Shown here: in pieces, positions 23,920 through 47,616 of the stretch
Layout of the letters: every line of letters begins with the position of its first letter
Position numbering within the stretch: position 1 is the first letter of the stretch
Assembly: GCA_963764665.1 (NCBI GenBank)
Contig: CAVXTL010000016.1
Location: 438 to 64,437, forward strand
DNA from: an uncultured Thermoleophilaceae bacterium
Lineage (GTDB): Bacteria; Actinomycetota; Thermoleophilia; Solirubrobacterales; Thermoleophilaceae
Reading direction: 5' to 3'
Length of the DNA: 64,000 nucleotides
Notes under the pieces: model-generated
Databases searched by the model: none
What the model was told of the DNA's origin: nothing
Seen by the model: the letters and a program-made list of their open reading frames with translations, nothing else
Program-made: the position numbers and the translations under genes

Positions 23920-25737
23920 GTGCCCCGCCTGCTCCTCGGCCTGATCCTCGTCGCCGGATTCGCCCTGCGCATCTGGAACAACGACTACGGGCTCCCGTAC
24001 GTGTGGAGCATCGACGAGGGCTCGCACTTCGCGAATCACGCGATCGAGATGTTCTGGCAGGACCTCGACCCGGGCTACTACGAGAACCCGTCCGCGTACA
24101 CCTACCTCCTCTACGCGCTGCTGCGCGTGATGTACGGCCCGCTCGGGTGGCTCTTCGACCTCCCGTTCGGGAACGTGACGGAGCAGTTCAGCAAGGACCC
24201 CGCGCAGATCTGGGTGGCCGCGCGCACGCTCGCCGCCGCGCTCTGCATGGCTGGCGTCGCGGCCGTGTACTGGGCCGCAAGACGGCTCTGGGGCACCCGC
24301 GAGGGGCTCGTGGCCGCGGCGGTGCTCGCGTTCGCGTTCCTGCCGGTGGCCTACTCGCGGGTGGCGGTCACCGACGTGGGCGCGCTCGCCGGGATGGCGC
24401 TCGCCCTGTATGGGTGCGTTCGGGCCTACGAGGACGGGCGCTGGGTCCACTACGCCCTCGCCGGCGCCGGGGCCGGCCTGGCCGGCGGCTTCAAGTACAC
24501 CGCGGGCCTGGCGCTGCTTCCGCTCGGCCTGGCTGCTCTGGCGCGCGTGCGCCGCGACCGGCTCCGGGCGCTCGCCGGCCTGGTGCTCGGAACGGCGCTG
24601 GCCGCGCTGGTGTTCCTCGTGCTGAACCCCTACCTGCCGGGCTCGTTCGACGCCTGGTGGAACGACCTTCACGACCAGGCGGACGTGGCTTCGGGACAGC
24701 CCAAGCCGGGCCAGGAGGAGGGCGGCGCCGGCTACTACCTGGACAGCCTGACCTGGGGGCTCGGCTGGGCCGCGGCCCTGGCGGCCCTGGCGGGCGCCGC
24801 GCTCGAGCTGCGCCGCGACCTGATCCGCGGCCTGATCCTCGTGGCGGTGCCGGTGGCGCTGTTCGTCTACCTCAGCCTCCAGGCCCGCTACTTCGGCCGC
24901 TGGCTGCTGCCCGCCTACCCGGCGCTGGCGATGCTCGCGAGCGTGGCGCTGGTGCGAGCGGCCGACGCGCTCCCGGCCCGGCGCGGCCGCTTCCCGCTGC
25001 GTGCCGTGGCCCTGCCGGCGCTCGTGGCGCTGGTGCTGGCGCAGCCCCTGGCGGCGGACGTACGCAGCGCGCTGGTGCTCGGCCGCGAGGACACCCGCAC
25101 CCAGGCCCGCGACTGGCTCGAGGCGCGCTACCCGCCGGAGCTGCGCGTGGCGATAGAGCCGGCGGTGCCCGGCCGCTTCTACCGCTCGACCCCGTCCGGC
25201 CGGCTGCCCGGCTGGCTCACCCGCTGCCAGGCGCGCGAGGGATGGACGGCGCCGGGCTTCGCGTACGACGGGCCGCGCGGCAAGAGGGTCTGCGTTCGCT
25301 TCAAGCCGGGCCAGTTCGCTCGCCCGGATGGCGGCGTGCGGGCGTCGGCGTACCACATGGTGCTCTCGCCCTCGGTGATCGACGACTACCGCCGCTACGG
25401 CTACTGCCTCGTGATGACACTCGACGTGGTCCGCGAGCGCGCACTGGAGACCGGCGACCCCGACGTGGCCGCCTACTACCGGCGGCTCGAGCGGGACGCC
25501 CGGCTGGTGCGCGAGTTCAGCCCCTACGACTCGGGCGCGAAGCCGGTGCCGTTCAGCTTCGACCTCTCCTACAACTACTACCCCACGGCCTACCGGCGGC
25601 CCGGACCCACCGTTCGCCTGTACCGGCTGAACGACTGCCGCCAGGCATACGGCCCTCCCCTGATTCGGATCCCGAAGGTCCGCGAGCTTCCCCCGTTCGC
25701 GCCGCGCGACGAGGGCGTGGCCGGTGAGGAGATCTGA
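23920..25737 (+). CDS. GT-C fold glycosyltransferase, family 39 / ArnT-PMT-like (polyprenyl-phosphate-sugar dependent)
   Basis: 605 aa with a GTG start. It has a polytopic N-terminal region with a first-loop acidic motif (SIDEGSH), more than 10 hydrophobic helices and a soluble C-terminal domain. Confidence 0.78.
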   Translation: MPRLLLGLILVAGFALRIWNNDYGLPYVWSIDEGSHFANHAIEMFWQDLDPGYYENPSAYTYLLYALLRVMYGPLGWLFDLPFGNVTEQFSKDPAQIWVAARTLAAALCMAGVAAVYWAARRLWGTREGLVAAAVLAFAFLPVAYSRVAVTDVGALAGMALALYGCVRAYEDGRWVHYALAGAGAGLAGGFKYTAGLALLPLGLAALARVRRDRLRALAGLVLGTALAALVFLVLNPYLPGSFDAWWNDLHDQADVASGQPKPGQEEGGAGYYLDSLTWGLGWAAALAALAGAALELRRDLIRGLILVAVPVALFVYLSLQARYFGRWLLPAYPALAMLASVALVRAADALPARRGRFPLRAVALPALVALVLAQPLAADVRSALVLGREDTRTQARDWLEARYPPELRVAIEPAVPGRFYRSTPSGRLPGWLTRCQAREGWTAPGFAYDGPRGKRVCVRFKPGQFARPDGGVRASAYHMVLSPSVIDDYRRYGYCLVMTLDVVRERALETGDPDVAAYYRRLERDARLVREFSPYDSGAKPVPFSFDLSYNYYPTAYRRPGPTVRLYRLNDCRQAYGPPLIRIPKVRELPPFAPRDEGVAGEEI

Positions 25738-25845
25738 GGCGCCCGGGGCCGCGGAGCGCGTTCGCTACGCTCCGGCCGCCCTGGCCCTGAACCCCGCGGA
25801 GCGGGCCGCATCACTCCCTCAGATGAGCTCGACTCCCCCCAGTCC

Positions 25846-27327
25846 ATGCGCCTGAGCCGGCGCGGTTTCATCAAGGCCGGCGCCGCCGGCGCTGCAGGAG
25901 CGGCGGCGCTCACGGCCGCCGGCTGCGACCTGCCGGGCGAGGGCTCCTCGGAGCCCACCAACGTCCTGCTGCTGATCATCGACAGCCTCAGGCCCGACCA
26001 CGTGGGCGCGTACGGGTCGCCGCAGGTGCGGACGCCGAACATCGACTGGCTCGCGGCCCGTGGCATGCGCTTCAACCGCGCGTTCCCCGAGGCGATGGTC
26101 ACGCTGCCGGCGCGGCGGTCGATCTTCACGAGCCGCCGGATCTTCCCGTTCCGGAACTTCAAGCCGAATCCGGAGCTCGGGCGTAGCCCAGGCTGGGAGC
26201 CGATCGAGAACCCCGACCAGACCACTTTCACGTCGGAGTTCAAGCGCGCCGGCTACTGGACGGCGCACGTCAGCGACAACCCCTTCCTTGCGTTCACGGG
26301 TCCGTACGAGCCCTTCCGCAAGACGTTTTCCCGCTGGGACACGGTCGTCGGCCAGTCCGGGTTCGTGAAGCCACCGGAGACGGTGCCCATGGAGACGGTG
26401 GAGCATTGGCTGCCACCTGTCCTGCGGGATGACCGATACGTGCCCGGAATGCGCAAGTACCTGGCGAACACCGGCGAGGGCGTAGACGAGGAACTGACAT
26501 GCACGGCCCGCGTCCACAAGAAGGCGATCGAGGTGCTGGACGATGCGATCGTGCGCCAGCCGTTCTGCATGACGATCGACTCCTTCGATCCGCACGAGCC
26601 GTGGAGCCCGCCGCGCAAGTACCTCGACATGTACGGCGACCCGGACTACGAGGGACCGGAGATAGGCGTCACCCGCTACGGCAACTCGAGCTACCTGACC
26701 CCCGAGCAGCTGCGACGCCTCCATGCCGTCTACGCCGCCGAGGTGACCATGGCGGACCACTGGCTGGGCAAGTTCCTGGAGGCGTTCCGGGAGAAGAAGC
26801 TCCACGAGAACACCGTGATCCTGCTGCTCAGCGATCACGGCTACCTGCTCGGCGAGCGCGGTCAGACGGGCAAGGTGCCCTCCCAGCTGCACCCCGAGCT
26901 CGCCCAGGTCCCGTTCATCGTCGCCCACCCCGATGGGCGCGCCGCCGGCCAGGTGAGCTCGCACTTCGCCTCCACCCATGACGTGGGCCCCACGCTGCTG
27001 TCGCTCGCCGGCATCGACCGTCCGAGCTGGATGGAGGGCCTCGACCTCTCCCCGCTCATGGACGGCGACCCCGTGGCATCGCGGCCGTTCCACTACGGGG
27101 GCATGTACAACCGCTTCTTCATCCGCACCGACGAGTGGGTGCTCATCGGCGACAACCGCGGCGAGGAGCGCTCCATGTACGACCTCCAGCGCGACCCGCA
27201 CGAGTTCTTCGACGTTGTGAAGGAGAACCCGAGGCTGAGCGAGGAGCTCTACCAGCAGGTGCTCGAGTCGGCGGGCGGCCCGCTGCCGTACTACGAGGGT
27301 CGCCCAACCACTCCAGGCGGCGGCTGA
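25846..27327 (+). CDS. Tat-exported sulfatase-like (alkaline phosphatase superfamily) lipoprotein with a Thr in the nucleophile position
   Basis: It has a twin-arginine motif (SRRGFIKAG) and a possible lipobox (TAAGC). The metal site is LLIIDSLRPDH. The signature-like TLPARRSIFTS at 26101 replaces C/S-x-P-x-R. Confidence 0.8.
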   Translation: MRLSRRGFIKAGAAGAAGAAALTAAGCDLPGEGSSEPTNVLLLIIDSLRPDHVGAYGSPQVRTPNIDWLAARGMRFNRAFPEAMVTLPARRSIFTSRRIFPFRNFKPNPELGRSPGWEPIENPDQTTFTSEFKRAGYWTAHVSDNPFLAFTGPYEPFRKTFSRWDTVVGQSGFVKPPETVPMETVEHWLPPVLRDDRYVPGMRKYLANTGEGVDEELTCTARVHKKAIEVLDDAIVRQPFCMTIDSFDPHEPWSPPRKYLDMYGDPDYEGPEIGVTRYGNSSYLTPEQLRRLHAVYAAEVTMADHWLGKFLEAFREKKLHENTVILLLSDHGYLLGERGQTGKVPSQLHPELAQVPFIVAHPDGRAAGQVSSHFASTHDVGPTLLSLAGIDRPSWMEGLDLSPLMDGDPVASRPFHYGGMYNRFFIRTDEWVLIGDNRGEERSMYDLQRDPHEFFDVVKENPRLSEELYQQVLESAGGPLPYYEGRPTTPGGG

Positions 27328-27419
27328 CCCCCGAACCCGCGGTACCCCCGTGCACGGCGCGGTGAGAAGCACGATGATGCCTGAGTGCTCGGGGAAAAGG
27401 TTCAAGTGGACGGGAGCGG

Positions 27420-29885
27420 TTGAGCACCCTTCGCTACCTCGAGGGCGTCGGGCTGTTGATCGTGACCGTGGGCCCGGTGGCGTTTGGCGCCCGCGAGCTG
27501 CGCCGGCGCCTCCTTCCCGGCTGGGCCGGAGCCCCGGCCTGGGTGGCCGACACGGTCCTCGCCGTCGCGATCCTGATCGCGGTGGCCGAAGTGCTGGGCA
27601 CGGCCGGCCTCCTCCAGCTGGCGCCGCTCGTGATCGCCTGCGTGGCGGCCGGCGCCGCCACGGCCGTGCTCGCCCGGCATGGCGGCGGCGGGGAGCGGCG
27701 GGGGCCGCTCCTCGCGCCCGCCGTTCCCACCGGCCGGCTCGGAATCGTCGCGGCCTGGGGCTCGGGGGCACTGGTCCTCGCCCAGTGGAGCGCCCGCGTG
27801 GCCACCGAGTTCGACCGCGGGATGACCACGCCCGACACGATCTGGCAGCACCTCCCCGCGGCCGCGCGCTTCGTCCAGGACGGCTCCATCCGCGACCTCC
27901 AGTTCTTCGACCGCGAGCCGTTCACCGTCTTCTACCCCTTCCACTCCTCCCTGCTCCATGCCGAGGGGATGCTGATCTTCGGCAGCGACGTCCTGTCGCC
28001 GGTGATCAACCTTGGCTGGCTCGGCTTCGCCCTGCTCGCCGCCTGGTGCGTCGGACGGCCGCGAGGCGTCGGGCCGGCCTGCGTCGTCGCGGTCGCGCTC
28101 GTGCTGGGCTCGCCGATCCTCGTGACCACCCAGGCCGGCGGCGCGTACACCGACGTCGTGGTGATCGCGCTCGTGCTCGCCTCGCTGGCGCTGCTCGCGA
28201 ACGGCGGAGTGCGCGGGTCGCCGCTCGTGCTCGCCGGCGTCGCCGCCGGTCTCGCGCTCGGGACGAAGTTCACCCCGATCCCGACTGTCGCGGCCCTCAG
28301 CGTGGGCGTGATCGCCCTCGCGCCGAGGGGCCGGCGCCTGCGGACCGTGGGCGTGTGGGTGGCGGCCCTCGTGCTCGCCGGAGGCTTCTGGTACGGGCGC
28401 AACCTGATCCACACGGGCAGCCCGATGCCCGCCTACAAGATCGATCTCGGCTTCTACGCGTTCCCGGACGTGGAGCATCTCCTTGTCCCGCGCGAGACCG
28501 TGGCCTCCTACCTGGACGGCGCCGACACCCGGCGGGCGTTCGTCGAGCCCGCTCTGGAGGACAACTTCGGACCGGCGTGGTGGGCGATCATCGCCCTGTC
28601 GCTGGCAGGCATGGTCGCCGGCCTGCTCAGCCGCGACGGTTTCGCCCGGATGCTGGCATTCACGGGCATCGTGAGCGTCGCCGCCTACCTGTTCAGCCCG
28701 CTCGTGCTGGGCACGGAGGGATTCCCCTATCTGCTCAAGTACAACGTCCGCTACGTCACGCTGGCCGTGGCGCTCGGGCTCGTGGCGCTGGCATGCCGGC
28801 CCGGGCTGGGAAGAGGGGCGCCCGGCGCGGCGATCCTGGGCGGTCTCGTGGCGCTCCTGGCCTTCACGCAGGCCGACGACACGCTCTGGCCCACGGCGCA
28901 CTGGCAGACCGCCGTGGTGGTGGGCCCGGCGGCGCTCGCGCTCGCCGCGCTGCTCGGCTGGCTCGGCAAGCGACGGCGCCGGCCAGCCCTCGCCGTCGGG
29001 GCGGTGCTGTTCCTCTTGCTGGCGGCCGGCGGAGCTCTCGTCCACCGGGACTACCTGCGCGACCGCTACACGCGCGCCGCCGCGCTGCGCTTCAAGCTGT
29101 CTCCCGTCGGCGGCTTCTGGGAGTGGGCGCGGAACGTGCACGGCGCCCGCATCGCGATGGCCGGCGACTATCTGACCTACCCGCTGTACGGGCGCGACCT
29201 CTCGAACCGGGTGGACTACGTGGGCCATCGCGGTCCCCACGGCGCGTTCCTGCCGATCGACACGTGCCCGGAGTGGCGCCGGAACCTCAACGCGGGGCAC
29301 TTCCAGTACGTGGTCACGACGCGCCTGCCCGAGGATCTCGAGGGCGCGCCGCCCGCGGACCGCTGGACGCGCTCCGACCCGGCAGCCACGCCGATCGCGA
29401 CGAACGCGGTCGCGGACGCGGGGCACGCGGCGCTCTTCCGCATCGACGGGTCATTCGATCCGGGCGCATGTCCCAAGCCGCGACTCGCGCTCGTGGGCGG
29501 CGGCGATGGCCGCCTGATCCGCCTCTCCTCCGGTGCCGAGATCCCGATCCGGCCGGACGCGGTGACCGGGTTCGTGGAGTCGGTCACTGCCCCGTCGGGC
29601 AGCGTTCAGGTAAGCGGGTGGGCCGCCGACGGGAAGCTGCGCAGCCCGGCCCGGCGCATCCTGGTTCTCGACGGCGGGCGGGTGCTGGCCGCCGGCGTCC
29701 CGACGCTCGACCGGCCTGACGTAGCCGGCAGCATCGGGCCGGGCGCCGGGCGCTCCGGGTTCCGCATCGTGTTCGAGGACCCGCGCACCACAAAGCTCAC
29801 CGAACCCGGGCGACTGCGGGTGTTCGCGCTGACCGACCAAGCCGCCTCGGAGCTCCCGCGGCTCGACCAGGAGCCAGGCGGCTAG
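27420..29885 (+). CDS. Large polytopic membrane protein, putative GT-C-type glycosyltransferase with C-terminal extracytoplasmic domains
   Basis: 821 aa. The TTG start is preceded by GGGAG. About 14 hydrophobic helices span the first 520 or so aa, followed by a soluble region of about 300 aa. The context is a glycosylation island. The family was not verified. Confidence 0.55.
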   Translation: MSTLRYLEGVGLLIVTVGPVAFGARELRRRLLPGWAGAPAWVADTVLAVAILIAVAEVLGTAGLLQLAPLVIACVAAGAATAVLARHGGGGERRGPLLAPAVPTGRLGIVAAWGSGALVLAQWSARVATEFDRGMTTPDTIWQHLPAAARFVQDGSIRDLQFFDREPFTVFYPFHSSLLHAEGMLIFGSDVLSPVINLGWLGFALLAAWCVGRPRGVGPACVVAVALVLGSPILVTTQAGGAYTDVVVIALVLASLALLANGGVRGSPLVLAGVAAGLALGTKFTPIPTVAALSVGVIALAPRGRRLRTVGVWVAALVLAGGFWYGRNLIHTGSPMPAYKIDLGFYAFPDVEHLLVPRETVASYLDGADTRRAFVEPALEDNFGPAWWAIIALSLAGMVAGLLSRDGFARMLAFTGIVSVAAYLFSPLVLGTEGFPYLLKYNVRYVTLAVALGLVALACRPGLGRGAPGAAILGGLVALLAFTQADDTLWPTAHWQTAVVVGPAALALAALLGWLGKRRRRPALAVGAVLFLLLAAGGALVHRDYLRDRYTRAAALRFKLSPVGGFWEWARNVHGARIAMAGDYLTYPLYGRDLSNRVDYVGHRGPHGAFLPIDTCPEWRRNLNAGHFQYVVTTRLPEDLEGAPPADRWTRSDPAATPIATNAVADAGHAALFRIDGSFDPGACPKPRLALVGGGDGRLIRLSSGAEIPIRPDAVTGFVESVTAPSGSVQVSGWAADGKLRSPARRILVLDGGRVLAAGVPTLDRPDVAGSIGPGAGRSGFRIVFEDPRTTKLTEPGRLRVFALTDQAASELPRLDQEPGG

Positions 29886-30964: not shown

Positions 30965-30974
30965 CGCGGGGATG

Positions 30975-31403
30975 CTAGGCCCCCGCCGGATCAAGGTCCA
31001 CGCGCACGACCAGGAGGTCGGTGCCCATCAGCCGCACGGTGGCCACGTTGACCGTCGAGCGCCTGCGAGTGCGCGCGATCGCATCCAGCCGCTGCCGCGG
31101 ATCGTCATCCGGAAGCGTCCGAGCCGTCCCCGCGAGCCAGCGCCGCCCGATTCGGATGCGCACCCGCGGGTTCGCCTCGATGTTCAGCACATAGGCGGCG
31201 CGGCGGCCGTGCTCGGCGACGATCCAGAACACATCCCCGTCGAGCCCGTCGGTGACCGGGTTCTGACGAACCCGGCCGGACTTCCTCCCCACGGTCTCGA
31301 GAATCGCGGTACCCGGCACCGGAACACCAAGCCGAAACAGCGTCCGCACCAACGGATTGAACGCGTACTTGGCAAGGCTCGTGGCGAACCATCGCTTGCT
31401 CAC
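30975..31403 (-). CDS. Deazaflavin (F420H2)-dependent nitroreductase/DDN-family oxidoreductase
   Basis: 142 aa from the GTG at 31403. The sequence FNPLVRTLFRLGVPVPGTAILETVGRKSGRVRQNPV...WIVAEHGRRAAYVLNIEANPRVRI is typical of the split beta-barrel DDN family. Confidence 0.72.
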   Translation of the reverse strand: MSKRWFATSLAKYAFNPLVRTLFRLGVPVPGTAILETVGRKSGRVRQNPVTDGLDGDVFWIVAEHGRRAAYVLNIEANPRVRIRIGRRWLAGTARTLPDDDPRQRLDAIARTRRRSTVNVATVRLMGTDLLVVRVDLDPAGA

Positions 31404-39415: not shown

Positions 39416-39447
39416 TCCAAGAGCTGCCGCTTGTACGCTCCGCCGCC

Positions 39448-39807: not shown

Positions 39808-41937
39808 TCAGATCCCGCCCAGGCGCTCCAGCGATCCGTCGGGCGCGACCTCGAACACGTCGATCCGGTTGCGCCCGCGGCGCAGGGCCGACTCCGGCAC
39901 CATCACGGAGAACAGCTCGCCGGTCTCGCCCTCGGCCAGCGTGAAGGTGTTGCCGACCGCGGCGATGCGGCCGTTCAGCGCCACCGCGATTTCGCGCGGA
40001 GCGCTCCCGTCATCGTCGATGAGCCCCACCGGATGGGTCGGCACGAAGTCGGAGTCCGGATTCACGTCGGCCCAGTCGGAGGAGTCGAGGATCTTCACGG
40101 AGCCCCTGCCGCCGCCCTCCGCGACGCGGCGGCCGATCAGCTCCTGGTGCGGCCCGATCCGGAACATCCGCAGCGGGCCGTCGGACCCGCTGCCGAAGAG
40201 GGCCTGGTTGCGGTCGCGCACGACCGCCTTCCTTTGCTCGAACTCGTCGGCGGAGAAGCGCAACGGCTCGAAGGTGTTGCGCTGGAGGATCCGCAGCGCA
40301 CGCCGGCGCTTGACCGTGTCGCTGTAGGCCGAGCGGCCGTCCATCTTCACCTTCGGATCGATGTTCAGGATGTCCAGGATCGTCGGCAGGATGTCGATCG
40401 TCTCGACGTACGCGTCGTTGACCTTGCCGCTCTCCTGACCGGGCGCCTTGATGAACAGCGGGATCGGCGCGATCTCGCCGTAGTTCTCACGGTCGAGGCG
40501 GCGCCGCTCGCGCCGTCCCTTGATGAAGGAGGTGCCGTGGTCGGCCGCGACGACGATCAGCGCGTCGTCCCACATGCCCTCCTCCTTGAGGTGGCGCCAG
40601 AGCTCCTGGAGGAGCAGGTCGGCGAAGCCGGTCTGCAGGAAGTGGCGCTGGAGCAGCACGTCCAGCTGGCCCTGGTCGTTGTAGGCCTGGTTCGACAGGC
40701 CGGGGACCGCGTCGTTCGGCTGGCGCCGGTAACGGCGGCCCGAGGGCATGAACTGCCACGGCACGTGGGGCATCAGCGTGTGCTTGAAGTTCAGGCTCGG
40801 CCGCTGCCCGGGCTTGATCTGGTCGACCCACTCCTCGAAGCGCGCCCTGCGCCCACCGGCCAGGTTGGACCGGGTGTTGGTCCTGTTGTTGTCCGACGAG
40901 CTGTTGCCGCTGCCGGCGCCACCCGAGCCGCCGAAGTCGCCCCAGTTCTCCGAGACGGAGTCCAGGTCCTCCTCGATGCCGGGCGGCGACGCCACGTGGA
41001 GCCACACCAGCCCGAGGTCCTCGCTCATGGAGGAGATGCGGTCGCCGTACGGCTCGTCCGCGCGCGTGTCCTCGCAGAGGTCGCGCGAGCAGACCGACGT
41101 GGCCTCCTCGGAGACGTTCAGCCGGTGTGTCTTGGCGAACAGCGAGAAGATGCTGTTCGGGTGGTCCGCGGAGATCGGCAGGCGGTCCTTGGCCGGAAGG
41201 TCGCCGTCCATGATCGCCGGCTGCGCGCGCTCGGTCGAGTCATAGATCGTGAATGCGTTCTTGAACCAGGTCGCGTTGCGCGCCAGCTCGGCGAAGCCCG
41301 GGTAGCGCGCCGTGTCGAGCCGGTCGCGATCGTCCACCAGAGTGTTCGACGGAAGCTCGTCGAGCAGCACCATCACGATCGGCGCCTGCGTGACGCCGCC
41401 GACGGTCCGAGCGCCCGCCTCGTCCGGGAACGCCAGCTTGGACACCGGCGAGCCCAGGAGGAAGAGGAGCAGGAAAACGAGCGGCGCGGGCGTGAGGATG
41501 TTGAGGAACGAGCGCAGCGGCTCGGCCCGCGCGTACAGCGCCGCCAGCGCGACTCCGATCGCGGCGGACAGTCCGATCAGGACGGCGTCCGAGCCGTCGA
41601 TGGACTTCTTGAGCGCCTGCACGGCGATCAGGGCCACAAGCGCGGCGATGAAGACCAGGTGCGCCCCCTTGAAGGCGCCGCGGCCGAACGGGCGCACGAG
41701 CAGCTCGATACCCAGCAGCAGCAGCGGCGGCAGCAGCACCAGCAGTAGCGAGAACGAGATGATGTCCCACCCCGAGGAGCCGCGGGCCGCGAAGAACTCG
41801 GGGTTGTCGCCGAGCAGGTCGAAGAGCGGCTGGGCGACGGCGAACGTCCACAGCACCGCCAGGTTGGCGAAGTGCCAGAGCGCCTCCTTCAGCAAGCTGG
41901 GCTGCGGGCGCGGCTCAGCCGCTCCCTCGGTGGCCAT
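39808..41937 (-). CDS. Membrane-anchored sulfatase-domain transferase (LtaS/EptA/OpgB-like, alkaline phosphatase superfamily)
   Basis: 709 aa from the ATG at 41937. Five N-terminal helices are followed by an extracytoplasmic domain with VMVLLDELPSNTL and YDSTERAQPAIMDG. It has no C-x-P-x-R signature. Confidence 0.78.
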   Translation of the reverse strand: MATEGAAEPRPQPSLLKEALWHFANLAVLWTFAVAQPLFDLLGDNPEFFAARGSSGWDIISFSLLLVLLPPLLLLGIELLVRPFGRGAFKGAHLVFIAALVALIAVQALKKSIDGSDAVLIGLSAAIGVALAALYARAEPLRSFLNILTPAPLVFLLLFLLGSPVSKLAFPDEAGARTVGGVTQAPIVMVLLDELPSNTLVDDRDRLDTARYPGFAELARNATWFKNAFTIYDSTERAQPAIMDGDLPAKDRLPISADHPNSIFSLFAKTHRLNVSEEATSVCSRDLCEDTRADEPYGDRISSMSEDLGLVWLHVASPPGIEEDLDSVSENWGDFGGSGGAGSGNSSSDNNRTNTRSNLAGGRRARFEEWVDQIKPGQRPSLNFKHTLMPHVPWQFMPSGRRYRRQPNDAVPGLSNQAYNDQGQLDVLLQRHFLQTGFADLLLQELWRHLKEEGMWDDALIVVAADHGTSFIKGRRERRRLDRENYGEIAPIPLFIKAPGQESGKVNDAYVETIDILPTILDILNIDPKVKMDGRSAYSDTVKRRRALRILQRNTFEPLRFSADEFEQRKAVVRDRNQALFGSGSDGPLRMFRIGPHQELIGRRVAEGGGRGSVKILDSSDWADVNPDSDFVPTHPVGLIDDDGSAPREIAVALNGRIAAVGNTFTLAEGETGELFSVMVPESALRRGRNRIDVFEVAPDGSLERLGGI

Positions 41938-43352
41938 CAGCCTTTCGGGCGGGCGTGGTACAGAACCCGGGTGCCCGACTCGAGGCGCTCCGAGCGCTCG
42001 ATCTCGAAGGCCTCGCCGAGGCAGCGCTCGAAGAACCCGAGCTCGTAGTCCGGGTGGAGCCCTTCGCGCTTGGGGGCCAGCAGCTTCTTGACCATCGGAT
42101 CCTCGAGCGTGGGGAACTCGATCACGAGCGCGGAGCCAAGGCTCGCAAGCCAGTCCACGAACTCCTTGACCGGCACGTTGGCGCTGATGGCGACGTGGTG
42201 GATGAGCGCGAGAGCCAGCACCAGGTCGGGCTTGCCGCGGTCCGGCATTGACCTGCGCTCGAGCCCGCGCCACCCGAGACCCGGCGACGGGTCGGCGAGG
42301 TTCATGGTCAGCGTGAGGATCTTCTCGTCGCCCTCGTCGCGAAGGTCGCGGTAGAGCAGCTCCATGGGACCCTGGTCGGCGTCGACCGCCACGACCGTGG
42401 AAGCGCCCTCGGCGGCGATGCGCGAGTAGCGCCCGTTGTTCGCGCCGATGTCCCAGACGAGATCCCAGTGGCGCGAGGTGGCCACCGACCGCACGAACTC
42501 GTCCTTGCGGGCGGCATCGTCGTCCGTGTAGGAGTTCCGCTCGCCGTAGGCCGTCCAAACACCCTCGGGCGGGCTCCAGTCGAGCCGCTCGACCATCTTG
42601 CGCATCTTGCGCACGTTGGCCATCACGATCTCCCGCTTGAGCCCGCGGCGCTTGACCTGGTCCTTGACCTCCTGAGGGCGGTCGGCGTAGCGCTTCTCGA
42701 GACGCGCGTGGAGGAAGACGTTGGTGAACACGCCGCGCCGGAAACGGTCCCGGAACGAGAGCAGCGAGGCCATCTCGGCCGGTCTGATCCCGTCGATCGA
42801 CCCGCGCATCCAGGGGTGGAACGGCACGTCCTTCGCCGCCTGGAGCAGCAGCGGATACAGGTAGAGCATGCAGAACTGGCGGTATCCCACCCACGGCTCG
42901 CCCTCGCGCAGCCGCTCGTACGAGCCGATGTCCACGAACAACGGGCGCGCGCCGCGGAACTGGACGTTGTAGGGCGTGGAGTCCTTCAAGACCATGTCCT
43001 GCTCCAATGCCGCGAGGAGCAGGTCCAGCTGCACGAGCGCGGCGTCCTTGAGCATCGAGAAGGTCCACTCGTACGGATAGGACACGAACGGGATGCGCTC
43101 GTGCCGTAGCACCCCGGCGGGCTCGTGCACGAGCAGGCCGCGAAGCGCCTCGGTGCTCTCGGCCCGCTCGGTGCGAACGAGGCGCTCGTCGTCCAGCAGG
43201 CCGGCGTCAACCAGTGCCTGGAAGTCGCTCAGGCCGTCGGCCGAGAGGGCGCGGTAGACCTCGCCGCCGCTGTAGAACACACGGCTCTCGGGGTCACGGA
43301 AGCTGCCTGGCTCGAGGCCGGATTCGGCGCTGATGTTGTCGGGCGGCCGCAT
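41937..43352 (-). CDS. Large class I SAM-dependent methyltransferase (NoeA-like)
   Basis: 471 aa. The N-terminal region is FRDPESRVF...YPYEWTFSMLKDAAL...LKDSTPYNVQF. The C-terminal Rossmann region is VWDIGANNGRYSRIAAE. Its stop overlaps the downstream start by 1 nt. Confidence 0.72.
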   Translation of the reverse strand: MRPPDNISAESGLEPGSFRDPESRVFYSGGEVYRALSADGLSDFQALVDAGLLDDERLVRTERAESTEALRGLLVHEPAGVLRHERIPFVSYPYEWTFSMLKDAALVQLDLLLAALEQDMVLKDSTPYNVQFRGARPLFVDIGSYERLREGEPWVGYRQFCMLYLYPLLLQAAKDVPFHPWMRGSIDGIRPAEMASLLSFRDRFRRGVFTNVFLHARLEKRYADRPQEVKDQVKRRGLKREIVMANVRKMRKMVERLDWSPPEGVWTAYGERNSYTDDDAARKDEFVRSVATSRHWDLVWDIGANNGRYSRIAAEGASTVVAVDADQGPMELLYRDLRDEGDEKILTLTMNLADPSPGLGWRGLERRSMPDRGKPDLVLALALIHHVAISANVPVKEFVDWLASLGSALVIEFPTLEDPMVKKLLAPKREGLHPDYELGFFERCLGEAFEIERSERLESGTRVLYHARPKG

Positions 43353-43412: not shown

Positions 43413-43613
43413 CTAGACGGAGTCCGTACTCCCCGTGGAGCTCGTGGAGCTGGGCTCGGCCGTCTCCGGCTCGTCCTTGCGGATCCGCAGGAAGCGCAGG
43501 ATGCGGTCCCAGTACAGCTTGGCAGTGACGGCCACGGCCGCGACTCCGCCGGCCAGGATCTGGAGGATCATGCTCCCGCTGCCGGGATCCAGGTATGCGA
43601 GAACGGTGGTCAT
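43413..43613 (-). CDS. Small single-pass membrane protein
   Basis: 66 aa: MTTVLAYLDPGSGSMILQILAGGVAAVAVTAKLYWDRILRFLRIRKDE... It has high GC3, one helix and a basic juxtamembrane segment. It is the first gene of the minus-strand operon. Confidence 0.5.
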   Translation of the reverse strand: MTTVLAYLDPGSGSMILQILAGGVAAVAVTAKLYWDRILRFLRIRKDEPETAEPSSTSSTGSTDSV

Positions 43614-43844
43614 CGTCTTGGTCGGGCTCCGTAGTTCGGGAAGCGGAGGAGGCTAGCAGAGGTGTTGCCACAATGTGACCGTTGGGCCCCCGTCCCGGCA
43701 GGCTTCGCCCGGCTGTGTGAAAGCCCTGCAAAAACGAGGTAAACACCGGCTCCTCGCGACCCGCGTGCGGGGGTCACCGTGTACCCCATTCGGGGGCGTC
43801 TCGGCCCTTCGCCGCCCATGCGGTCTTTACGCTACGCCCAGCAC

Positions 43845-44927
43845 ATGAAGCTGATCATCCAGATCCCCTGCTTCAACGAGGAGGAGACCCTTCCCGGCAC
43901 CCTGGCCGACCTTCCCCGGGAGGTACCCGGAATGGACTCCGTCGAGTGGCTCGTGATCGACGACGGGTCGACCGACCGCACGGTGGACGTCGCGCGCGAG
44001 CACGGCGTGGACCACATCGTCCGTCTCACGAACAACCGCGGCCTTGCCGCCGCCTTCCAATCCGGGCTCGACGCCTGCCTCAAGCTCGATGCCGACGTGA
44101 TCGTCAACACCGACGCCGACAACCAGTACCAGGGCGCCGACATCGTGCTCCTGGTCGAGCCGATAGCCGCGGGCAAGGCCGACATGGTCATCGGCGACCG
44201 GCAGACGGACACGATCGCCCATTTCTCGCCCATCAAGAAGTGGCTCCAGCGCTTCGGCAGCGCGGTGGTGCGGCGCGCCTCCGGGACCAGCATCGCCGAC
44301 ACCACCTCCGGGTTCCGTGCCTACAACCGGGAGGCCGCGCTTCAGCTGCAGGTGGTCTCGAAGTTCACGTACACACTCGAGTCGCTGATCCAGGCCGGGA
44401 AGATGCTCGTGGCGGTCGAGCACGTGCCGGTGCGGACCAACGAGCAGACCCGCCCGTCGCGCCTGTTCCCGTCGATGTGGTCGTACGTTCGCCGCAACGG
44501 CATCTCCATCTTCCGGATCTACGCGCTGTACGAGCCGCTGCGGGTGTTCGTGGCGGCCGCGGCGTTCGTGGCCCTTTTCGGTGTGGTGCTCTGGGTCCGG
44601 TTCGCCTGGTTCTTCATCGAGGGCGAGGGCGACGGCCACATCCAGTCGCTGATCGTCGGTGCCACGCTGTTCATCGTCGCCGTGCAGCTGCTCGCCCTCG
44701 GAGTGGTAGGCGACATCCTCGCCGGCAGCCGGGTGCTCCAACAGCGGATCCTCGAGCGCGTCCGCCGGGTGGAGCTCCAGCTCGGCGTCGAGCCCTCGCA
44801 CTACGAGCCGGGCAGGACGCAGGGCGAGCGGGAGGCCACCACCGGCGCCCAGGCCGGCGCGGCCACCGGCAAGCCAGCCACGCCCGAGGACCCGGCCGAC
44901 CCCACCCGCCAGGCGGTCAAGCTGTGA
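43845..44927 (+). CDS. GT2 polyprenyl-phosphate glycosyltransferase (GtrB/DPM1/ArnC-like)
   Basis: It contains IIQIPCFNEEETL, VIDDGSTDRT, the DXD-like motif NTDADNQ and TSGFRAYN. Two C-terminal transmembrane helices are present, as in GtrB/ArnC. Confidence 0.88.
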   Translation: MKLIIQIPCFNEEETLPGTLADLPREVPGMDSVEWLVIDDGSTDRTVDVAREHGVDHIVRLTNNRGLAAAFQSGLDACLKLDADVIVNTDADNQYQGADIVLLVEPIAAGKADMVIGDRQTDTIAHFSPIKKWLQRFGSAVVRRASGTSIADTTSGFRAYNREAALQLQVVSKFTYTLESLIQAGKMLVAVEHVPVRTNEQTRPSRLFPSMWSYVRRNGISIFRIYALYEPLRVFVAAAAFVALFGVVLWVRFAWFFIEGEGDGHIQSLIVGATLFIVAVQLLALGVVGDILAGSRVLQQRILERVRRVELQLGVEPSHYEPGRTQGEREATTGAQAGAATGKPATPEDPADPTRQAVKL

Positions 44928-45553
44928 GCGGGGGCGCCGCGGCCCCGAGCGCGGACGTCCCGACCGGGAACACCTTCGACAAGTACGGGTCCACGAACCC
45001 CGTGGTCAGGCGGCTGATGACCGGCTTCCACGCGAGCCTCGACGAGCTCTGGACGGCCGCCGCGCCCGAATCGCTCCTGGACGTGGGGTGCGGCGAAGGT
45101 GTGCTCACGGTCGAGTGGGCGGAGCGCCTCGGGGACCGGCGCGTGGTGGGCATCGACCTCGACGATCCGAAGCTGGCGGCCGAATGGGCCAAGCGGCGGC
45201 GGGACAACCTCGAGTTCCGGACCGCCGACGCCACGGCGCTCACGTTCGCGGACGACGAGTTCGACGTGGCCACGGCGATCGAGGTGCTCGAGCACGTGCC
45301 CGAGCCCGAGGCCACGGTGGCCGAGATGGCCCGCGTAGCGCGCCGCCGGCTGCTCGTGTCGGTGCCGCGGGAGCCCCTGTGGCGCGGCCTCAACGTGGCG
45401 CGCGGCGCGTACCTCCGGCAACTCGGCAACACGCCGGGTCACGTGAACCACTGGTCCCGGCGCTCGTTCGCCTCGCTGCTCGCACGCCACGGCACGGTCG
45501 AGCAGGTGCGCTCGCCCTTCCCGTGGACGATGCTCCTGGTGCGAGTGGACTAG
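44924..45553 (+). CDS. Class I SAM-dependent methyltransferase (Methyltransf_11-like)
   Basis: The GTG at 44924 overlaps the GT2 stop (GTGA). Motif I is LLDVGCGEGVL, followed by AIEVLEHVPEP. Confidence 0.85.
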   Translation: MSGGAAAPSADVPTGNTFDKYGSTNPVVRRLMTGFHASLDELWTAAAPESLLDVGCGEGVLTVEWAERLGDRRVVGIDLDDPKLAAEWAKRRRDNLEFRTADATALTFADDEFDVATAIEVLEHVPEPEATVAEMARVARRRLLVSVPREPLWRGLNVARGAYLRQLGNTPGHVNHWSRRSFASLLARHGTVEQVRSPFPWTMLLVRVD

Positions 45554-45561
45554 ATGACTGG

Positions 45562-46887
45562 ATGAAGGGAGCCTCGACCGGTCGAGGCTATGGCCGGGGC
45601 GCGGCGATCCTCTCGGTGGGGATCGGCGCCACCGGGCTGATCACCTTCGCGTACTTCTCACTCGCCAGCCACGCGCTCTCCGAGGAGCAGTACGGCGAGG
45701 TGGCGCTGCTCTGGTCGGCCATCTTCATCACGGTCTCGGTGCTCTACCGGCCGGTGGAGCAGCTCCTGTCGCGCACGATCTCGGACCGCGACGCGCGCGG
45801 CGTGGAGGGCTCGGATTACCTGCGCGTGGCCGCCACGATCCAGCTCGTGCTCGGCGTGGCCTTCGCGGTGGTCGCGCTCGTGTTCCGCGCGCCAATCCAG
45901 GACGACCTCTTCAACGGGTCCGCCACGCTCTACTGGATCCTGATCGTGGCGGTGCTGGCATACGCCGCCAGCTACTTCGCCCGCGGGTTCCTCGCGGGCC
46001 ATCGCTACTTCACGCTCTACGGCGGGCTCGTGCTGATGGAGTCCGTATCGCGCTTTCTGTTCGCGCTCGCGGTGACAGTCGGCGTGGCGGAGGGCCAGAC
46101 GGCCGTGGCGCTCGGCATGGCGGCGGCGCCGATCGTGTCGCTCACGGTGGTAGCCCCGGCCCTCGCGCGGCACCTGACACGCCGCGACCGCGGGCCCTCG
46201 CCGGACACGAACGCGCCCGCGATTCCCGACGAGCCGATGGAGCCGGAGTTCACGCTCTCGCACGGCAGCGGCTTCGCGTTCGCCGTGCTGGGGATCATGC
46301 TGGCCGAGCAGACCTTCCTCAATGCGGGGCCGCTGCTCGTGCGGGCCACCGAGGGGGAGCAGGGCGCCGCGCTGGCGGGCTTCGCCTTCAACGTCCTGCT
46401 GCTGGCACGCGCTCCGCTGGTGCTCTTCCAGGCGGTGCAGACCTCGATCCTCCCCCACCTCACGCGCCTCTGGGTGGGGGCCGGCGGCGCTGTCGACGGC
46501 GACGTGGATCCGTTCCGCCGCAGCGTCAACCTCACACTCGCGGCGATCGGCGTGTTCTCCGGCTCGGTCGCGCTCGTGATGGCGGTGGCGGGACCTCAGC
46601 TGATGGGCGTGGTGTTCGGCGGTGACTTCCACTACGACCGCGGCGGCCTGGTGCTCGTGTCGCTGGCGATGGGGCTCTACCTGTCCGCCGCGACCGTCAA
46701 CCAGGCGCTGCTCGCGCAGGGGCGGGCGCGCCAGGCGGCGATGGTCTGGGTGTCTTCGGCAGCCGCGTTCGTGGCGTTCCTCCTGCTCTCGCCGGTGAAC
46801 GACCCCGTGCTGTCGGTGGAGGTCGGGCTGCTCGGGGGCGCGGCTGTGCTGTGCACCCTCCTGCTCACGCTGTACCGTCGCGCCTGA
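45562..46887 (+). CDS. Polysaccharide/oligosaccharide flippase (MOP/Wzx-like)
   Basis: 441 aa from the ATG at 45562. It has about 12 helices and an N-terminus typical of polysaccharide biosynthesis protein family members. Confidence 0.72.
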   Translation: MKGASTGRGYGRGAAILSVGIGATGLITFAYFSLASHALSEEQYGEVALLWSAIFITVSVLYRPVEQLLSRTISDRDARGVEGSDYLRVAATIQLVLGVAFAVVALVFRAPIQDDLFNGSATLYWILIVAVLAYAASYFARGFLAGHRYFTLYGGLVLMESVSRFLFALAVTVGVAEGQTAVALGMAAAPIVSLTVVAPALARHLTRRDRGPSPDTNAPAIPDEPMEPEFTLSHGSGFAFAVLGIMLAEQTFLNAGPLLVRATEGEQGAALAGFAFNVLLLARAPLVLFQAVQTSILPHLTRLWVGAGGAVDGDVDPFRRSVNLTLAAIGVFSGSVALVMAVAGPQLMGVVFGGDFHYDRGGLVLVSLAMGLYLSAATVNQALLAQGRARQAAMVWVSSAAAFVAFLLLSPVNDPVLSVEVGLLGGAAVLCTLLLTLYRRA

Positions 46888-46890
46888 CGA

Positions 46891-47616
46891 GTGCCTGAGT
46901 TCGTGGTGATCCCAAGCCGCTTCAACGGCCCGCCCGCGAGCGCCAACGGTGGGTATACCTGCGGCGCGCTGGCCTCCCTGCTGGGGAGCGACGTGGTGCA
47001 GGTGTCGCTGCGAACGCCGCCGCCCGTGGGGCGCCCGCTGGCGGTGAGCCATCACGACGGCCGGGTGGAGCTTCACGACGGCGCCACGCTGGTGGCCGAG
47101 GGCGAGGGCTCCGAGCTGCTGCTCGACGTGCCCGAGCCCGTGCATCCCGACGTCGCCCGGGCCGCATCGGAGGCCGGGCGCCGGAAGTGGACGGTCGAGC
47201 ACCCCTTCCCGACCTGTGTGGTGTGCGGGCCCGATCGCGAGGCCGGCGACGGCTACCGCATCTTCCCGGGAGCGCTGCCGGGAACGGACGGGCTGTTCGC
47301 CGCCGACTGGACACCCGACGAGTCGCTTTCGGACGGCGAGGGGCGCGTCCGGCCCGAGTGCGTGTGGGGCGCGCTCGACTGTCCCACGAGCGCGCCCGTG
47401 GCGAACTTCGGCGAGGGGCCGGCGATGGTGCTGGCGCGCCTCACCGCGCGGATCGGCTGCGATGTGCGCGCCGGCGAGCGCCACGCGCTGGTGTCGTGGC
47501 CACTCGAGGTGGACGGCCGCAAGCGCCACGCGGCATGCGCGCTGTTCGACGAGACCGGGCGCCTGCTGTGCGCCTCGCGGGCGCTCTGGATCGAGTTGCG
47601 CGAGACCCCGGCATGA
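46891..47616 (+). CDS. Hotdog-fold (PaaI/4HBT-like thioesterase) family protein
   Basis: 241 aa with a GTG start 4 nt after the flippase stop. It has Gly-rich N-terminal NGGYTCGA and C-terminal hotdog-like segments. The assignment is tentative. Confidence 0.5.
   Translation: MPEFVVIPSRFNGPPASANGGYTCGALASLLGSDVVQVSLRTPPPVGRPLAVSHHDGRVELHDGATLVAEGEGSELLLDVPEPVHPDVARAASEAGRRKWTVEHPFPTCVVCGPDREAGDGYRIFPGALPGTDGLFAADWTPDESLSDGEGRVRPECVWGALDCPTSAPVANFGEGPAMVLARLTARIGCDVRAGERHALVSWPLEVDGRKRHAACALFDETGRLLCASRALWIELRETPA

Follow-up and report, generated by a model that had tools for sequence, protein, structure and literature searches.

What kind of glycan would a soil actinobacterium build with a 24-kb block of membrane-bound glycosyltransferases, flippase-like proteins and exported enzymes? 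The block lies at positions 23920-47616 of a 64,000-nucleotide stretch of DNA (the window) from an uncultured bacterium (contig CAVXTL010000016.1 of assembly GCA_963764665.1, positions 438 to 64,437 of the forward strand), and homologues place the organism in Thermoleophilaceae (Solirubrobacterales, Thermoleophilia). Thermoleophilia are abundant soil Actinomycetota, and our literature searches turned up nothing on their envelope chemistry, on its glycosyltransferases, or on the LPG_synthase_TM family. About 15 neighbouring genes of the block encode putative envelope-glycan machinery and form five conserved transcription units. We read the block, with a probability of about 0.7, as a multi-module pathway that uses polyprenyl-phosphate sugars to assemble or decorate an envelope glycan on the outer side of the membrane. 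An earlier reading of the bare sequence (the original prediction) had described three-component lipid-phosphate-sugar systems, multiplied, and this fits what we found: a lipid-sugar synthase, two flippase-type families and four glycosyltransferases of the C fold type (GT-C).

Since the window has a G+C content of ~72% with no compositional break across the region, genes were called from third-position GC periodicity, and start codons were checked against orthologue lengths. The called genes were scanned against Pfam and NCBIfam, the scan covering all large genes of the 64 kb. Public NCBI/ENA annotation of these proteins is limited to 'hypothetical protein', 'NAD(P)/FAD-dependent oxidoreductase' or 'protoporphyrinogen oxidase'. 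For synteny, all cluster proteins were compared by tblastn with 85 loci, 80 of which represent one genome per GTDB species; the other 5 (L001-L005) were obtained by looking up the contigs of homologous proteins. Fifty-five of the 85 loci (Thermoleophilaceae/Solirubrobacterales) span the full +/-10 kb around the gene for a 528-aa GT-C protein (34635-36221) and are the denominator of the counts out of 55 given below. Note that this gene was the anchor of the loci, so that its presence in 55/55 is by construction, and that presence counts for the GT2 gene are limited by locus edges. The genes of the putative glycan machinery, in order along the window, are as follows.

23920-25737 (+): GT-C glycosyltransferase, 605 aa; PMT_2 4e-14, PMT 1.6e-9, GT87 3e-9
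25846-27327 (+): exported alkaline-phosphatase-superfamily enzyme, 493 aa; Sulfatase 7e-36, weak TAT_signal (twin-arginine translocation, TAT)
27420-29885 (+): GT-C-fold protein by AlphaFold2 and Foldseek, 821 aa; lineage-specific
31490-33013 (-): FAD enzyme resembling UDP-galactopyranose mutase (UGM-like), 507 aa; NCBIfam NF005548 / PRK07208
33010-34587 (-): GT-C glycosyltransferase, 525 aa; PMT_2 in orthologues, motif WMDEGLS
34635-36221 (-): GT-C-fold protein by AlphaFold2 and Foldseek, 528 aa; family without a Pfam model
36231-37247 (-): MprF-flippase-domain-like membrane protein, 338 aa; LPG_synthase_TM 1e-41
37421-39415 (+): secreted glycoside hydrolase of family GH2, 664 aa; three GH2 Pfam domains
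39412-39801 (+): small lipoprotein, 129 aa, lipobox LPGC; translationally coupled to the GH2 gene
39808-41937 (-): NoeB/LtaS-like membrane enzyme, 709 aa; Sulfatase 6e-15
41937-43352 (-): NoeA-family cytoplasmic protein, 471 aa; full-length NoeA homology
43413-43613 (-): conserved single-pass membrane microprotein, 66 aa (MTTVLAYLDPGSGSMILQ...), upstream of the NoeA-like gene
43845-44927 (+): GT2 of the polyprenyl-phosphate glycosyltransferase type, 360 aa; Glycos_transf_2 7e-23
44924-45553 (+): class I S-adenosylmethionine (SAM) methyltransferase, 209 aa; Methyltransf_11 3e-21
45562-46887 (+): MOP/Wzx-like polytopic protein, second flippase candidate, 441 aa; Polysacc_synt 2.2e-7

Every gene named by the original prediction was recovered, coordinates included, and five genes were added to its inventory (29882-30994(-), 30975-31403(-), 39412-39801(+), 43413-43613(-) and 46891-47616). 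The absences it had pointed out were confirmed for the window, as the scanned genes of the 64 kb include no WecA/WbaP, Wzy/Wzz, ABC exporter or gene for sugar-nucleotide synthesis. Within the transcription units, genes are coupled by 4-bp overlaps or gaps of 9-47 bp.

GT-C proteins and the lipid-sugar synthase operon

All four large polytopic proteins are assigned to the GT-C glycosyltransferases, two from Pfam PMT_2 matches and two from AlphaFold2 models compared by Foldseek. Hydropathy gave 8-14 segments and a C-terminal non-membrane region for each of the four, in agreement with the models of the 528-aa and 821-aa proteins. Two PMT/ArnT-like proteins had been recognized earlier by a D-E-G motif in the first loop, and both motifs, SIDEGSH and WMDEGLS, are present with PMT_2 support. 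The 605-aa protein matches PMT_2, PMT and GT87, all above the gathering score, and has ~10 transmembrane (TM) helices, a Cys-rich C-terminal outer domain, and D32-E33 in the first outer loop within its SIDEGSH motif (SIDE[GA] in orthologues); its gene stands beside the cluster, adjoining the rib operon, in 39/55 relatives. The 525-aa protein alone reached 0.0018 against PMT_2, below threshold; PMT_2 was matched by 19/19 of its orthologues (best 1.2e-8), WMDEGLS is kept in 66 of 72 orthologues, and the residues W48-x-D50-E51-G52 within it are invariant. It has ~11 TM helices and a C-terminal outer domain, its PDB sequence search was empty, and its gene, found in 54/55 relatives, has its stop codon within the start of the following gene (4-bp overlap).

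PDB sequence searches were empty for the 528-aa protein (searched with its family profile) and for the 821-aa protein, which has no Pfam match either, so that structure prediction was needed for both; alignment-based AlphaFold2 models were built and submitted to Foldseek. The model of the 528-aa protein (predicted local distance difference test, pLDDT, 78; predicted template modelling score, pTM, 0.81) matched ArnT best at 4.4e-7, followed by STT3, ALG9/6/12, PglB, EmbB, AftB and PimE, and its 18 best matches were all GT-C. For the 821-aa protein (pLDDT 90.5, pTM 0.85), ArnT was again best at 2.8e-5, followed by EmbC, AftA, STT3 and Pmt4, and the 6 best matches were all GT-C. The template modelling score to ArnT was ~0.5 for both. 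The original prediction had listed these two only as further polytopic proteins with extracytoplasmic C-terminal domains, and had allowed that the polytopic proteins might turn out not to be GT-C at all; profile and structure searches placed them within that class.

The 528-aa protein carries Y66-D67-P68-W69 after TM1, and YDPW is kept in 73 of 77 sequences. D67 is invariant in 36 diverse members of the family, for none of which was a significant Pfam match found. The family is large, with 2253 clusters at 50% identity at E<=1e-3 and 793 at 1e-30, and no homologue was found in the plasmid collection. The 821-aa protein has three extra N-terminal helices, C-terminal alpha/beta and beta-sandwich domains, and an invariant D139 in the first outer loop of its family.

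The GT2 protein combines a GT-A domain, with a DAD motif at residues 91-93, with C-terminal TM helices at ~225-251 and 270-288, which bears out the GtrB/DPM1/ArnC architecture proposed earlier (a catalytic domain plus two C-terminal helices). All seven of its solved relatives are polyprenyl-phosphate glycosyltransferases (among them Pyrococcus furiosus dolichyl-phosphate mannose synthase, ArnC and GtrB sll0501), aligned over residues 2-293, with a dolichyl-phosphate mannose synthase as the best. In NCBIfam, its matches stayed below threshold, spanning nearly the full length for AglJ, ArnC and PgfS and the catalytic domain for PpgS. The GT2 gene was found in 41/55 relatives. Its stop overlaps by 4 bp the gene of the 44924-45553 methyltransferase, which directly follows GT2 in 27/27 relatives where the sequence suffices; among named families, this methyltransferase comes closest to MftM, which methylates mycofactocin oligosaccharides (3e-16, below cut-off). 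Next comes the Wzx-like gene, found after the methyltransferase gene in 6/6 relatives where the sequence suffices; its product has ~12-14 hydrophobic segments.

A 241-aa protein (46891-47616(+)) is encoded 3 bp after the Wzx-like gene. It has no Pfam or NCBIfam match, and its P-x-C-V-V-C-G motif is reminiscent of hotdog-fold thioesterases. Homologues follow the Wzx-like gene in at least two distant relatives (L062 and L074) and are not found there in four others where the sequence suffices; L064 also gives a homologue match.

Core operon, NoeA/NoeB-type module and exported enzymes

The central operon encodes the flippase-like protein, the 528-aa and 525-aa GT-C proteins and the UGM-like flavoenzyme, in this order. 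Its first product scored 143.8 bits (vs 33.4) against LPG_synthase_TM and 3.5e-23 (82.5 bits vs 43.2) against TIGR00374, 'flippase-like domain', and is by family a candidate lipid-linked-sugar flippase; the gene occurs in 53/55 relatives and in a distant 'Actinomycetes' metagenome-assembled genome (MAG; L085). Two flippase types had been predicted for the block, and both were found, LPG_synthase_TM strongly at 36231-37247 and Polysacc_synt narrowly above the gathering score at 45562-46887.

The last gene of the operon, found in 53/55 relatives at ~82% identity, encodes a flavoenzyme with a GAGPAG FAD motif and a score of 658 bits against NF005548. The 20 best PDB matches of its family profile are all UGMs, with Aspergillus fumigatus UGM (AfUGM) first at 1.9e-38 and Trypanosoma cruzi UGM at 2.1e-31 over nearly its full length. 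Nine active-site residues are common to all UGMs, namely H63, Y162, W167, R182, R327, E373, Y419, R447 and Y453 of AfUGM (PMC3322874). Eight of the nine (H63, Y162, W167, R182, R327, Y419, R447 and Y453) were aligned by HMMER and are invariant in a nine-sequence, three-phylum alignment of the UGM-like family; E373 was left unaligned, but an invariant LE363 exists in the family. The UGM-like flavoenzyme of the original prediction is hence a true relative of UDP-galactopyranose mutase. On the other hand, residues that vary between UGM types (AfUGM N163, N207 and Y334) are not kept, and the enzyme is not a member of the Glf equivalog TIGR00031 (36 bits vs a cut-off of 303.75), for which reasons we name it UGM-like and not UGM. 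In Pfam it matched Amino_oxidase and NAD_binding_8 and not the GLF domain; the family is named 'hypothetical protein' at NCBI and 'protoporphyrinogen oxidase' at JGI. With the eukaryote-type UGMs of A. fumigatus and T. cruzi it shares the GGH loop, both diphosphate-binding Arg residues, Y419, R447, Y453 and N457, but it is only ~25% identical to them, lacks N207 and Y334, and has Thr in place of N163 as in bacterial UGMs. Judged from these residues, the flavoenzyme is probably a pyranose/furanose mutase of nucleoside diphosphate sugars.

The genes noeA and noeB have been known for 30 years as host-range nodulation genes of Sinorhizobium, and WbdD, with which the NoeA family has been compared, caps an O-antigen with methyl phosphate. 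The 471-aa protein of the block is 33% identical to S. meliloti NoeA over 458 aa, and 42% and 39% identical to its homologues in Singulisphaera and Novosphingobium PP1Y, respectively. Its N-terminal domain contains K123-D124...N129...D141, and its C-terminal domain the methyltransferase motif I DIGANNG; D124, N129 and D141, as well as D301-x-G-x-N-x-G, are invariant in a cross-phylum alignment. The methyltransferase domain is weak, yet present in 16/16 orthologues, and the gene occurs in 47/55 relatives at ~82% identity. At the sequence level, neither WbdD nor any other solved structure was matched in a PDB search. The Lani_1194/NoeA family is predicted to combine an atypical kinase-like domain with a SAM methyltransferase, an arrangement compared with that of WbdD, and its conserved neighbours occur in 65% and 38% of a total of 816 neighbourhoods (PMC9758233). 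The NoeA-like protein is accordingly predicted to be a kinase-like protein with a class I SAM methyltransferase domain, the kinase fold being taken from that study. Of the two SAM methyltransferases in the original prediction, the one at 44924-45553 is clear, and the one at 41937-43352 has a weak domain within a full-length NoeA-type protein. Given the WbdD-like arrangement and the methyl-phosphate cap made by WbdD, a (methyl)phospho-decoration by the NoeA/NoeB module is plausible by analogy.

In the NoeB-like protein, encoded in 46/55 relatives, some five N-terminal TM helices precede an outer domain of the alkaline phosphatase fold that bears the Thr motif YDSTE. Its distant PDB relatives are phosphonate monoester hydrolases and LtaS, and it is 21% identical to S. 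meliloti NoeB over 420 aa. In S. meliloti, Singulisphaera and Novosphingobium PP1Y, the gene after the noeA homologue is NoeB, 'LTA synthase family' or 'sulfatase-like'. The microprotein encoded upstream of the NoeA-like gene is nearly invariant over its first 50 residues in four relatives. Both S. meliloti noeA and its Novosphingobium PP1Y homologue are preceded by an open reading frame (ORF) of ~70 aa that carries an AYLDPG[ST]GS-type motif. The NoeA/NoeB/microprotein triad is common to Alphaproteobacteria, Planctomycetota and this locus. Its closest known counterparts are the S. meliloti operon, with the alkaline-phosphatase-fold partner downstream and the microprotein upstream, and the Legionella Lani_1193-1195 neighbourhood (PMC9758233). 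The setting differs: noeA/noeB of S. meliloti lie behind a nod box together with nodL, whereas the triad here is embedded in a GT-C/polyprenyl-phosphate-sugar cluster.

The remaining enzymes are exported. The 25846-27327 protein starts with MRLSRRGFIK...AAGC, including a TAT motif and a lipobox-like Cys, and its gene was found in 40/55 relatives. The C/S-x-P-x-R formylglycine motif was found in neither of the two Sulfatase-Pfam proteins (25846-27327 and 39808-41937), and we rejected a true sulfatase function for both for this lack of the nucleophile motif. In the 25846-27327 protein, the position is taken by T-x-P-x-R (MVT[ILV]PARRS in 44 of 46 orthologues examined), and Thr in place of Cys/Ser means that it is no classical sulfatase; from its motifs it is assigned to the phosphoesterase-type members of the alkaline phosphatase superfamily. 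Both alkaline-phosphatase-superfamily enzymes of the original prediction are therefore present as Sulfatase-Pfam proteins, the one at 39808-41937 now as the NoeB/LtaS-like partner of the NoeA-like protein. The secreted GH2 enzyme, also predicted, has its three GH2 domains and an N-terminal signal peptide (...ALPDAARA-Q), and its gene occurs in 42/55 relatives. Its nearest solved relatives are of the beta-glucuronidase, beta-galacturonidase and beta-galactosidase types. We considered a beta-galactofuranosidase, as in Streptomyces ORF1110, and found it unsupported, as no galactofuranosidase is among the 60 best listed PDB relatives. The coupled lipoprotein, with no Pfam or NCBIfam family match, is encoded in 49/55 relatives.

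Conservation of the block and recurrence in other phyla

The four-gene core operon is complete in 50/55 relatives, and together with the lipoprotein, NoeB-like and NoeA-like genes in 44/55. These seven genes have identical order and strands in 43/55, and the collinearity extends down to ~55% protein identity, indicating clustering far beyond chance; with GT2 added, the set is complete in 37/55. The original prediction had named scattering of the genes in relatives as a point that would count against it, and tblastn showed them co-localized instead. The PMT_2-type GT-C gene (23920-25737) and its exported partner (25846-27327) adjoin the rib operon in ~40/55. In distant carriers (Solirubrobacter deserti, a Solirubrobacteraceae MAG and the 'Actinomycetes' MAG), only the two GT-C genes and the UGM-like gene, with or without the flippase-like gene, are found within 10 kb. 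In the 'Actinomycetes' MAG, a Wzy_C protein (O-antigen ligase/polymerase-like; L085, 6618-8195(-)) is divergent from the four-gene core.

The 24 kb had been described as one block. It is contiguous here, but it is not one conserved unit, because 27420-31403 is a lineage-specific variable slot. In the window, the slot holds the 821-aa GT-C gene and two others.

29882-30994 (-): SorA-like Mo enzyme (sulfite-dehydrogenase type); no evident signal peptide
30975-31403 (-): F420H2-dependent quinone reductase; overlapped by the start of the SorA-like gene

The 821-aa GT-C gene lies beside the cluster in 0/55 relatives, and the SorA-like gene in 1/55 (L006), where it abuts the exported 25846-type gene. 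What usually separates the UGM-like gene from that of the exported enzyme is a single small gene unrelated to the cluster, encoding EamA, GH6 or F420H2 quinone reductase. Some relatives (L001, L003 and L004) have one to three GH6 (cellulase-family) genes in and beside the slot, and others an EamA transporter; further GH6 copies flank the PMT_2-type GT-C gene. Homologues of the 821-aa protein reside in other, even larger GT-C-rich loci of related genomes. Two such 18-kb loci are L093 (1-18046) and L094 (1-18466). One locus with an 821-aa homologue holds five GT2, methyltransferases, a Wzy_C protein and a series of unannotated proteins of membrane size (533-681 aa), and the other holds YfhO, three PMT_2, GT2, an acyltransferase, and UbiA with two epimerases, the last three resembling a decaprenyl-phospho-arabinose/pentofuranose route.

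The cluster lies between the rib operon and fmt/def/priA, and its place beside the rib operon is kept in relatives. Both flanks are housekeeping, with smc, rnc, plsX, recG, fakA and ribD-ribE-ribBA on the left and fmt, lactate permease, glcDEF, malate synthase, def, priA and metK on the right. Over the whole window GC stays even, at 0.68-0.74. No tRNA gene and no Rfam RNA element was found in the 64 kb, and the scanned genes include neither an integrase nor a transposase. A mobile genomic island was rejected on these grounds and on the conserved synteny. Thus, the 'island' of the original prediction stands as a gene block and fails in the sense of acquired DNA, since a core syntenic neighbourhood with uniform GC is not an island of that kind.

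Outside this lineage, UGM-like homologues (46-49% identity) on annotated plasmids lie within glycan clusters. On a plasmid of Novosphingobium sp. MBES04 (L088, 2361-11113), a UGM-like gene (46% identity) is followed by GtrA and a 605-aa polytopic protein, and the divergent neighbours encode a second polytopic protein (615 aa) that is fused to GtrA, a SAM methyltransferase, PAP2, and a GT2 with a C-terminal pair of TM helices. By the families encoded, this plasmid carries the same functional set as the window, built from different families, and is an independent recurrence. The MBES04 UGM-like copy was used as the seed of a metagenome scan that gave 80 loci (L095-L174). A homologue of the 605-aa plasmid protein was present at >=85% coverage in 23/80 of these loci, and at a laxer 60% coverage in 19 of the 44 loci of >=8 kb; GtrA was present in 15 of those 44. 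A polytopic ORF (>=380 aa, >=7 TM) lay within 2.5 kb in 45/62 usable loci vs 10/31 control windows, a crude comparison by simple ORF calling. The PRK07208 UGM-like gene, GtrA and the ~600-aa polytopic protein thus form, as judged from gene content, a recurrent unannotated module. The family of the 605-aa plasmid protein has no Pfam match and invariant D51/D53/D54 after TM1; its comparison by hhalign with GT-C families, at a low effective number of sequences (Neff), gave probabilities of 1-26%, so that it is a GT-C candidate only.

Proposed pathway, rival explanations and known systems

The order of events charging by GT2, flipping, and GT-C transfer outside the membrane is established (PMC11127046, PMC11754754), and the genes of the block can be arranged along it. 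The GtrB/ArnC-type GT2 would charge polyprenyl phosphate with a sugar at the cytoplasmic face, and the coupled methyltransferase would probably O-methylate that sugar or its precursor, while the UGM-like flavoenzyme would provide a ring-contracted (furanose) nucleotide sugar. The Wzx-like protein of the GT2 operon and the MprF-flippase-like protein of the GT-C operon may bring the donors, or an acceptor, in lipid-linked form to the outer side of the membrane, where the three conserved GT-C enzymes and the fourth, lineage-specific one would transfer sugars onto the acceptor. The NoeA/NoeB module (microprotein, kinase-like/methyltransferase protein and alkaline-phosphatase-fold enzyme) would attach a phosphate-containing, possibly methylated substituent, and GH2 with its lipoprotein partner, together with the TAT-exported, phosphoesterase-like lipoprotein with a Thr nucleophile, may trim or remodel the product. 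Because neither an initiating phosphoglycosyltransferase nor a polymerase or exporter was found in the window, the acceptor is expected to be a membrane lipid anchor, like those of phosphatidylinositol mannosides (PIM), lipomannan (LM) and lipoarabinomannan (LAM), or a polymer made elsewhere, as in the Gac/Scc systems. We infer all substrates, the direction of flow and the unity of the units from the folds, families, catalytic motifs, operon structure and synteny described above.

A more specific version is tentative and rather unlikely. In it, the UGM-like enzyme and GT2 would make a polyprenyl-phosphate hexofuranose such as polyprenyl-phosphate galactofuranose, flipped by the MprF-domain or Wzx-like protein; the two Pfam-less GT-C proteins would build a Thermoleophilia-specific furanose lipoglycan or wall glycan from it, and NoeA/NoeB would cap this with (methyl)phosphate. 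We know of no lipid-linked hexofuranose donor described so far; to our knowledge, the lipid-linked furanose donors are pentofuranoses from phosphoribosyl pyrophosphate. If true, this version would extend the repertoire of lipid-linked sugar donors and give a first biochemical handle on noeA/noeB, and the recurrence of UGM-like, GtrA and polytopic proteins in Proteobacteria-type metagenome loci would represent a widespread unrecognized route.

Several observations weigh against a single polyprenyl-phosphate-sugar pathway. No substrate, product or phenotype is on record for these proteins or close homologues. GT2 reaches no NCBIfam equivalog cut-off (AglJ 102 bits of 325, PpgS 73 of 370, ArnC 49 of 529), so that no donor sugar can be assigned to it by family. 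The Wzx-like assignment of 45562-46887 is marginal by its profile score (31.0 bits vs a gathering score of 28.2, in the N-terminal half of the profile only), hhalign comparisons among the GT-C families gave probabilities of 1-26% at low Neff, and the GH2 relatives are uronidases and galactosidases, with no furanosidase among them. In Gloeothece and Methylomagnum, the UGM-like gene stands beside GT-A genes and ABC transporters, indicating that its product can also feed Leloir enzymes. The units are transcribed divergently or convergently with a variable slot between them, and beyond the family only the core operon persists, so that the unity of the larger cluster is backed at family depth only.

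The last points are also those that speak for a syntenic neighbourhood of independent systems (a Ppm/Pmt-like pair, the GT-C/UGM operon, NoeAB and the hydrolases) kept together by descent and not by function: there are five transcription units in mixed orientations, the slot takes up unrelated genes (SorA-like, F420H2 quinone reductase, EamA and GH6), only three or four core genes stay together in distant relatives, and the NoeA/NoeB triad stands alone in other phyla. We regard this explanation as possible but doubtful, given the collinearity in 43/55 relatives down to ~55% protein identity, the Novosphingobium plasmid on which UGM-like, flippase and polytopic proteins, GT2 and a methyltransferase are united independently, and the presence of one lipid-sugar synthase in the window for four GT-C proteins that need such a donor. 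A narrower function, protein O-glycosylation of the Ppm1/Pmt type, would have GT2 make polyprenyl-phosphate mannose and PMT-like GT-C enzymes mannosylate secreted proteins. The PMT and PMT_2 matches of the 605-aa protein at 23920-25737, the PMT_2 matches of the 525-aa family and the mannose synthase as the best solved relative of GT2 agree with it. However, PMT_2 includes ArnT-like and many non-protein GT-C enzymes, the 605-aa protein equally matches GT87 of the PimE/Mpt type, and the two modelled proteins are closer to ArnT than to Pmt; three or four GT-C enzymes, a UGM-like, an LtaS/NoeB-like and a GH2 enzyme would moreover be superfluous for Pmt mannosylation, which makes this function improbable. 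The density of carbohydrate genes, the secreted GH2 and the two Sulfatase-Pfam proteins could suggest a horizontally acquired island or a polysaccharide-degradation locus. This is effectively refuted by synteny and composition, with GC at 0.68-0.74, housekeeping flanks and neither tRNA nor, among the scanned genes, integrase or transposase; in addition, both 'sulfatases' lack C/S-x-P-x-R, and the genes mostly encode biosynthetic membrane enzymes.

The pathway outside the membrane can be compared with known systems, of which none matched gene for gene in literature searches and annotated collections, a match that the original prediction had held to be decisive against its novelty. Its statement that no characterized system has this composition holds for the whole cluster and not for its parts, as Gac/Scc and NoeA/NoeB offer parallels. 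Mycobacterial arabinogalactan (AG) and LM/LAM are made with Ppm1, PimE, MptA-D, EmbA-C, AftA-D, Glf and the GtrA-like Rv3789, with a cluster at Rv3779-Rv3809c. Like the block, mycobacterial and corynebacterial assembly dispenses with Wzy/Wzz: a GT2 makes the polyprenyl-phosphate sugar, many GT-C enzymes build the glycan outside the membrane, and their genes are grouped with those of a UGM and a candidate lipid-sugar flippase. EmbB/EmbC, AftA, AftB and PimE were among the Foldseek matches. The resemblance is one of type and not of demonstrated orthology. Unlike there, two GT-C families of the block are without a Pfam model, the mutase is of the eukaryote-like PRK07208 type and not Glf, no UbiA/DprE set lies in the window, MprF-domain and Wzx types make up the candidate flippases, and a NoeA/NoeB module is present.

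GacK of the streptococcal Gac system is a Wzx-type flippase. The streptococcal GacH/I/J/L (10.1101/180810) and SccN/P, SccM/Q and SccH (PMC11754754) resemble the block in a GT2 synthase of undecaprenyl-phosphate sugar, a Wzx-type protein, GT-C enzymes, an LtaS-like phospho-transferase, and a small membrane protein that belongs to the system. In contrast, no polyrhamnose backbone, ABC exporter or GacO-type initiator is nearby here, the LtaS-like enzyme is paired with a NoeA-like protein, and the microprotein is tied to that pair, not to GT2. The three-component systems GtrA/GtrB/GtrC, ArnC/ArnEF/ArnT and PPPRS/MATE/GT136 (PMC11127046) share the synthase, flippase and GT-C; here, however, four GT-C proteins share one synthase, the flippase families differ from GtrA, ArnEF and MATE, the genes are a chromosomal core and not phage-borne or serotype-specific, and mutase, methyltransferase, phospho-transfer and hydrolase modules are added. 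Versions with several GT-C enzymes and extra oxidoreductases are known in Bacillus (PMC11194591).

Gtr/Arn, Gac/Scc, mycobacterial AG/LAM and NoeA/NoeB are each a clear counterpart of a sub-module. The type of pathway is well known, while this version and several of its enzyme families, including two GT-C families without curated models, are uncharacterized, and the association of a eukaryote-like UGM relative with lipid-sugar machinery was unexpected. A specialist in actinobacterial envelopes may not find the block very surprising, but it offers several concrete testable leads. The cluster and the other GT-C-rich loci suggest that envelope glycans of Thermoleophilia are largely built by GT-C enzymes outside the membrane, as in mycobacteria but with different families. 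Two targets stand out: the large Pfam-less GT-C family with its 793 strong clusters at 50% identity, and the bacterial clade of eukaryote-like UGM relatives that travel with lipid-sugar flippases and polytopic proteins in several phyla. For the biochemically unsolved NoeA/NoeB module, the genomic context provides a tie to glycan decoration.

Some neighbouring genes may also be recorded. In the ribD-ribE-ribBA operon (20761-23919), ribD is only ~70-100 bp away from the GT-C gene, which runs divergently, and no flavin mononucleotide riboswitch was found by Rfam at the gathering threshold in this region. A few kb to its left lie genes for a glycerophosphodiester phosphodiesterase (16616-17587(+)) and a transporter of the major facilitator superfamily type (18088-19290(-)); a tie of these two to envelope glycerol-phosphate chemistry would be pure speculation. 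Directly after the block comes a molybdopterin oxidoreductase of the bis-molybdopterin guanine dinucleotide type (47642-49921(+)).

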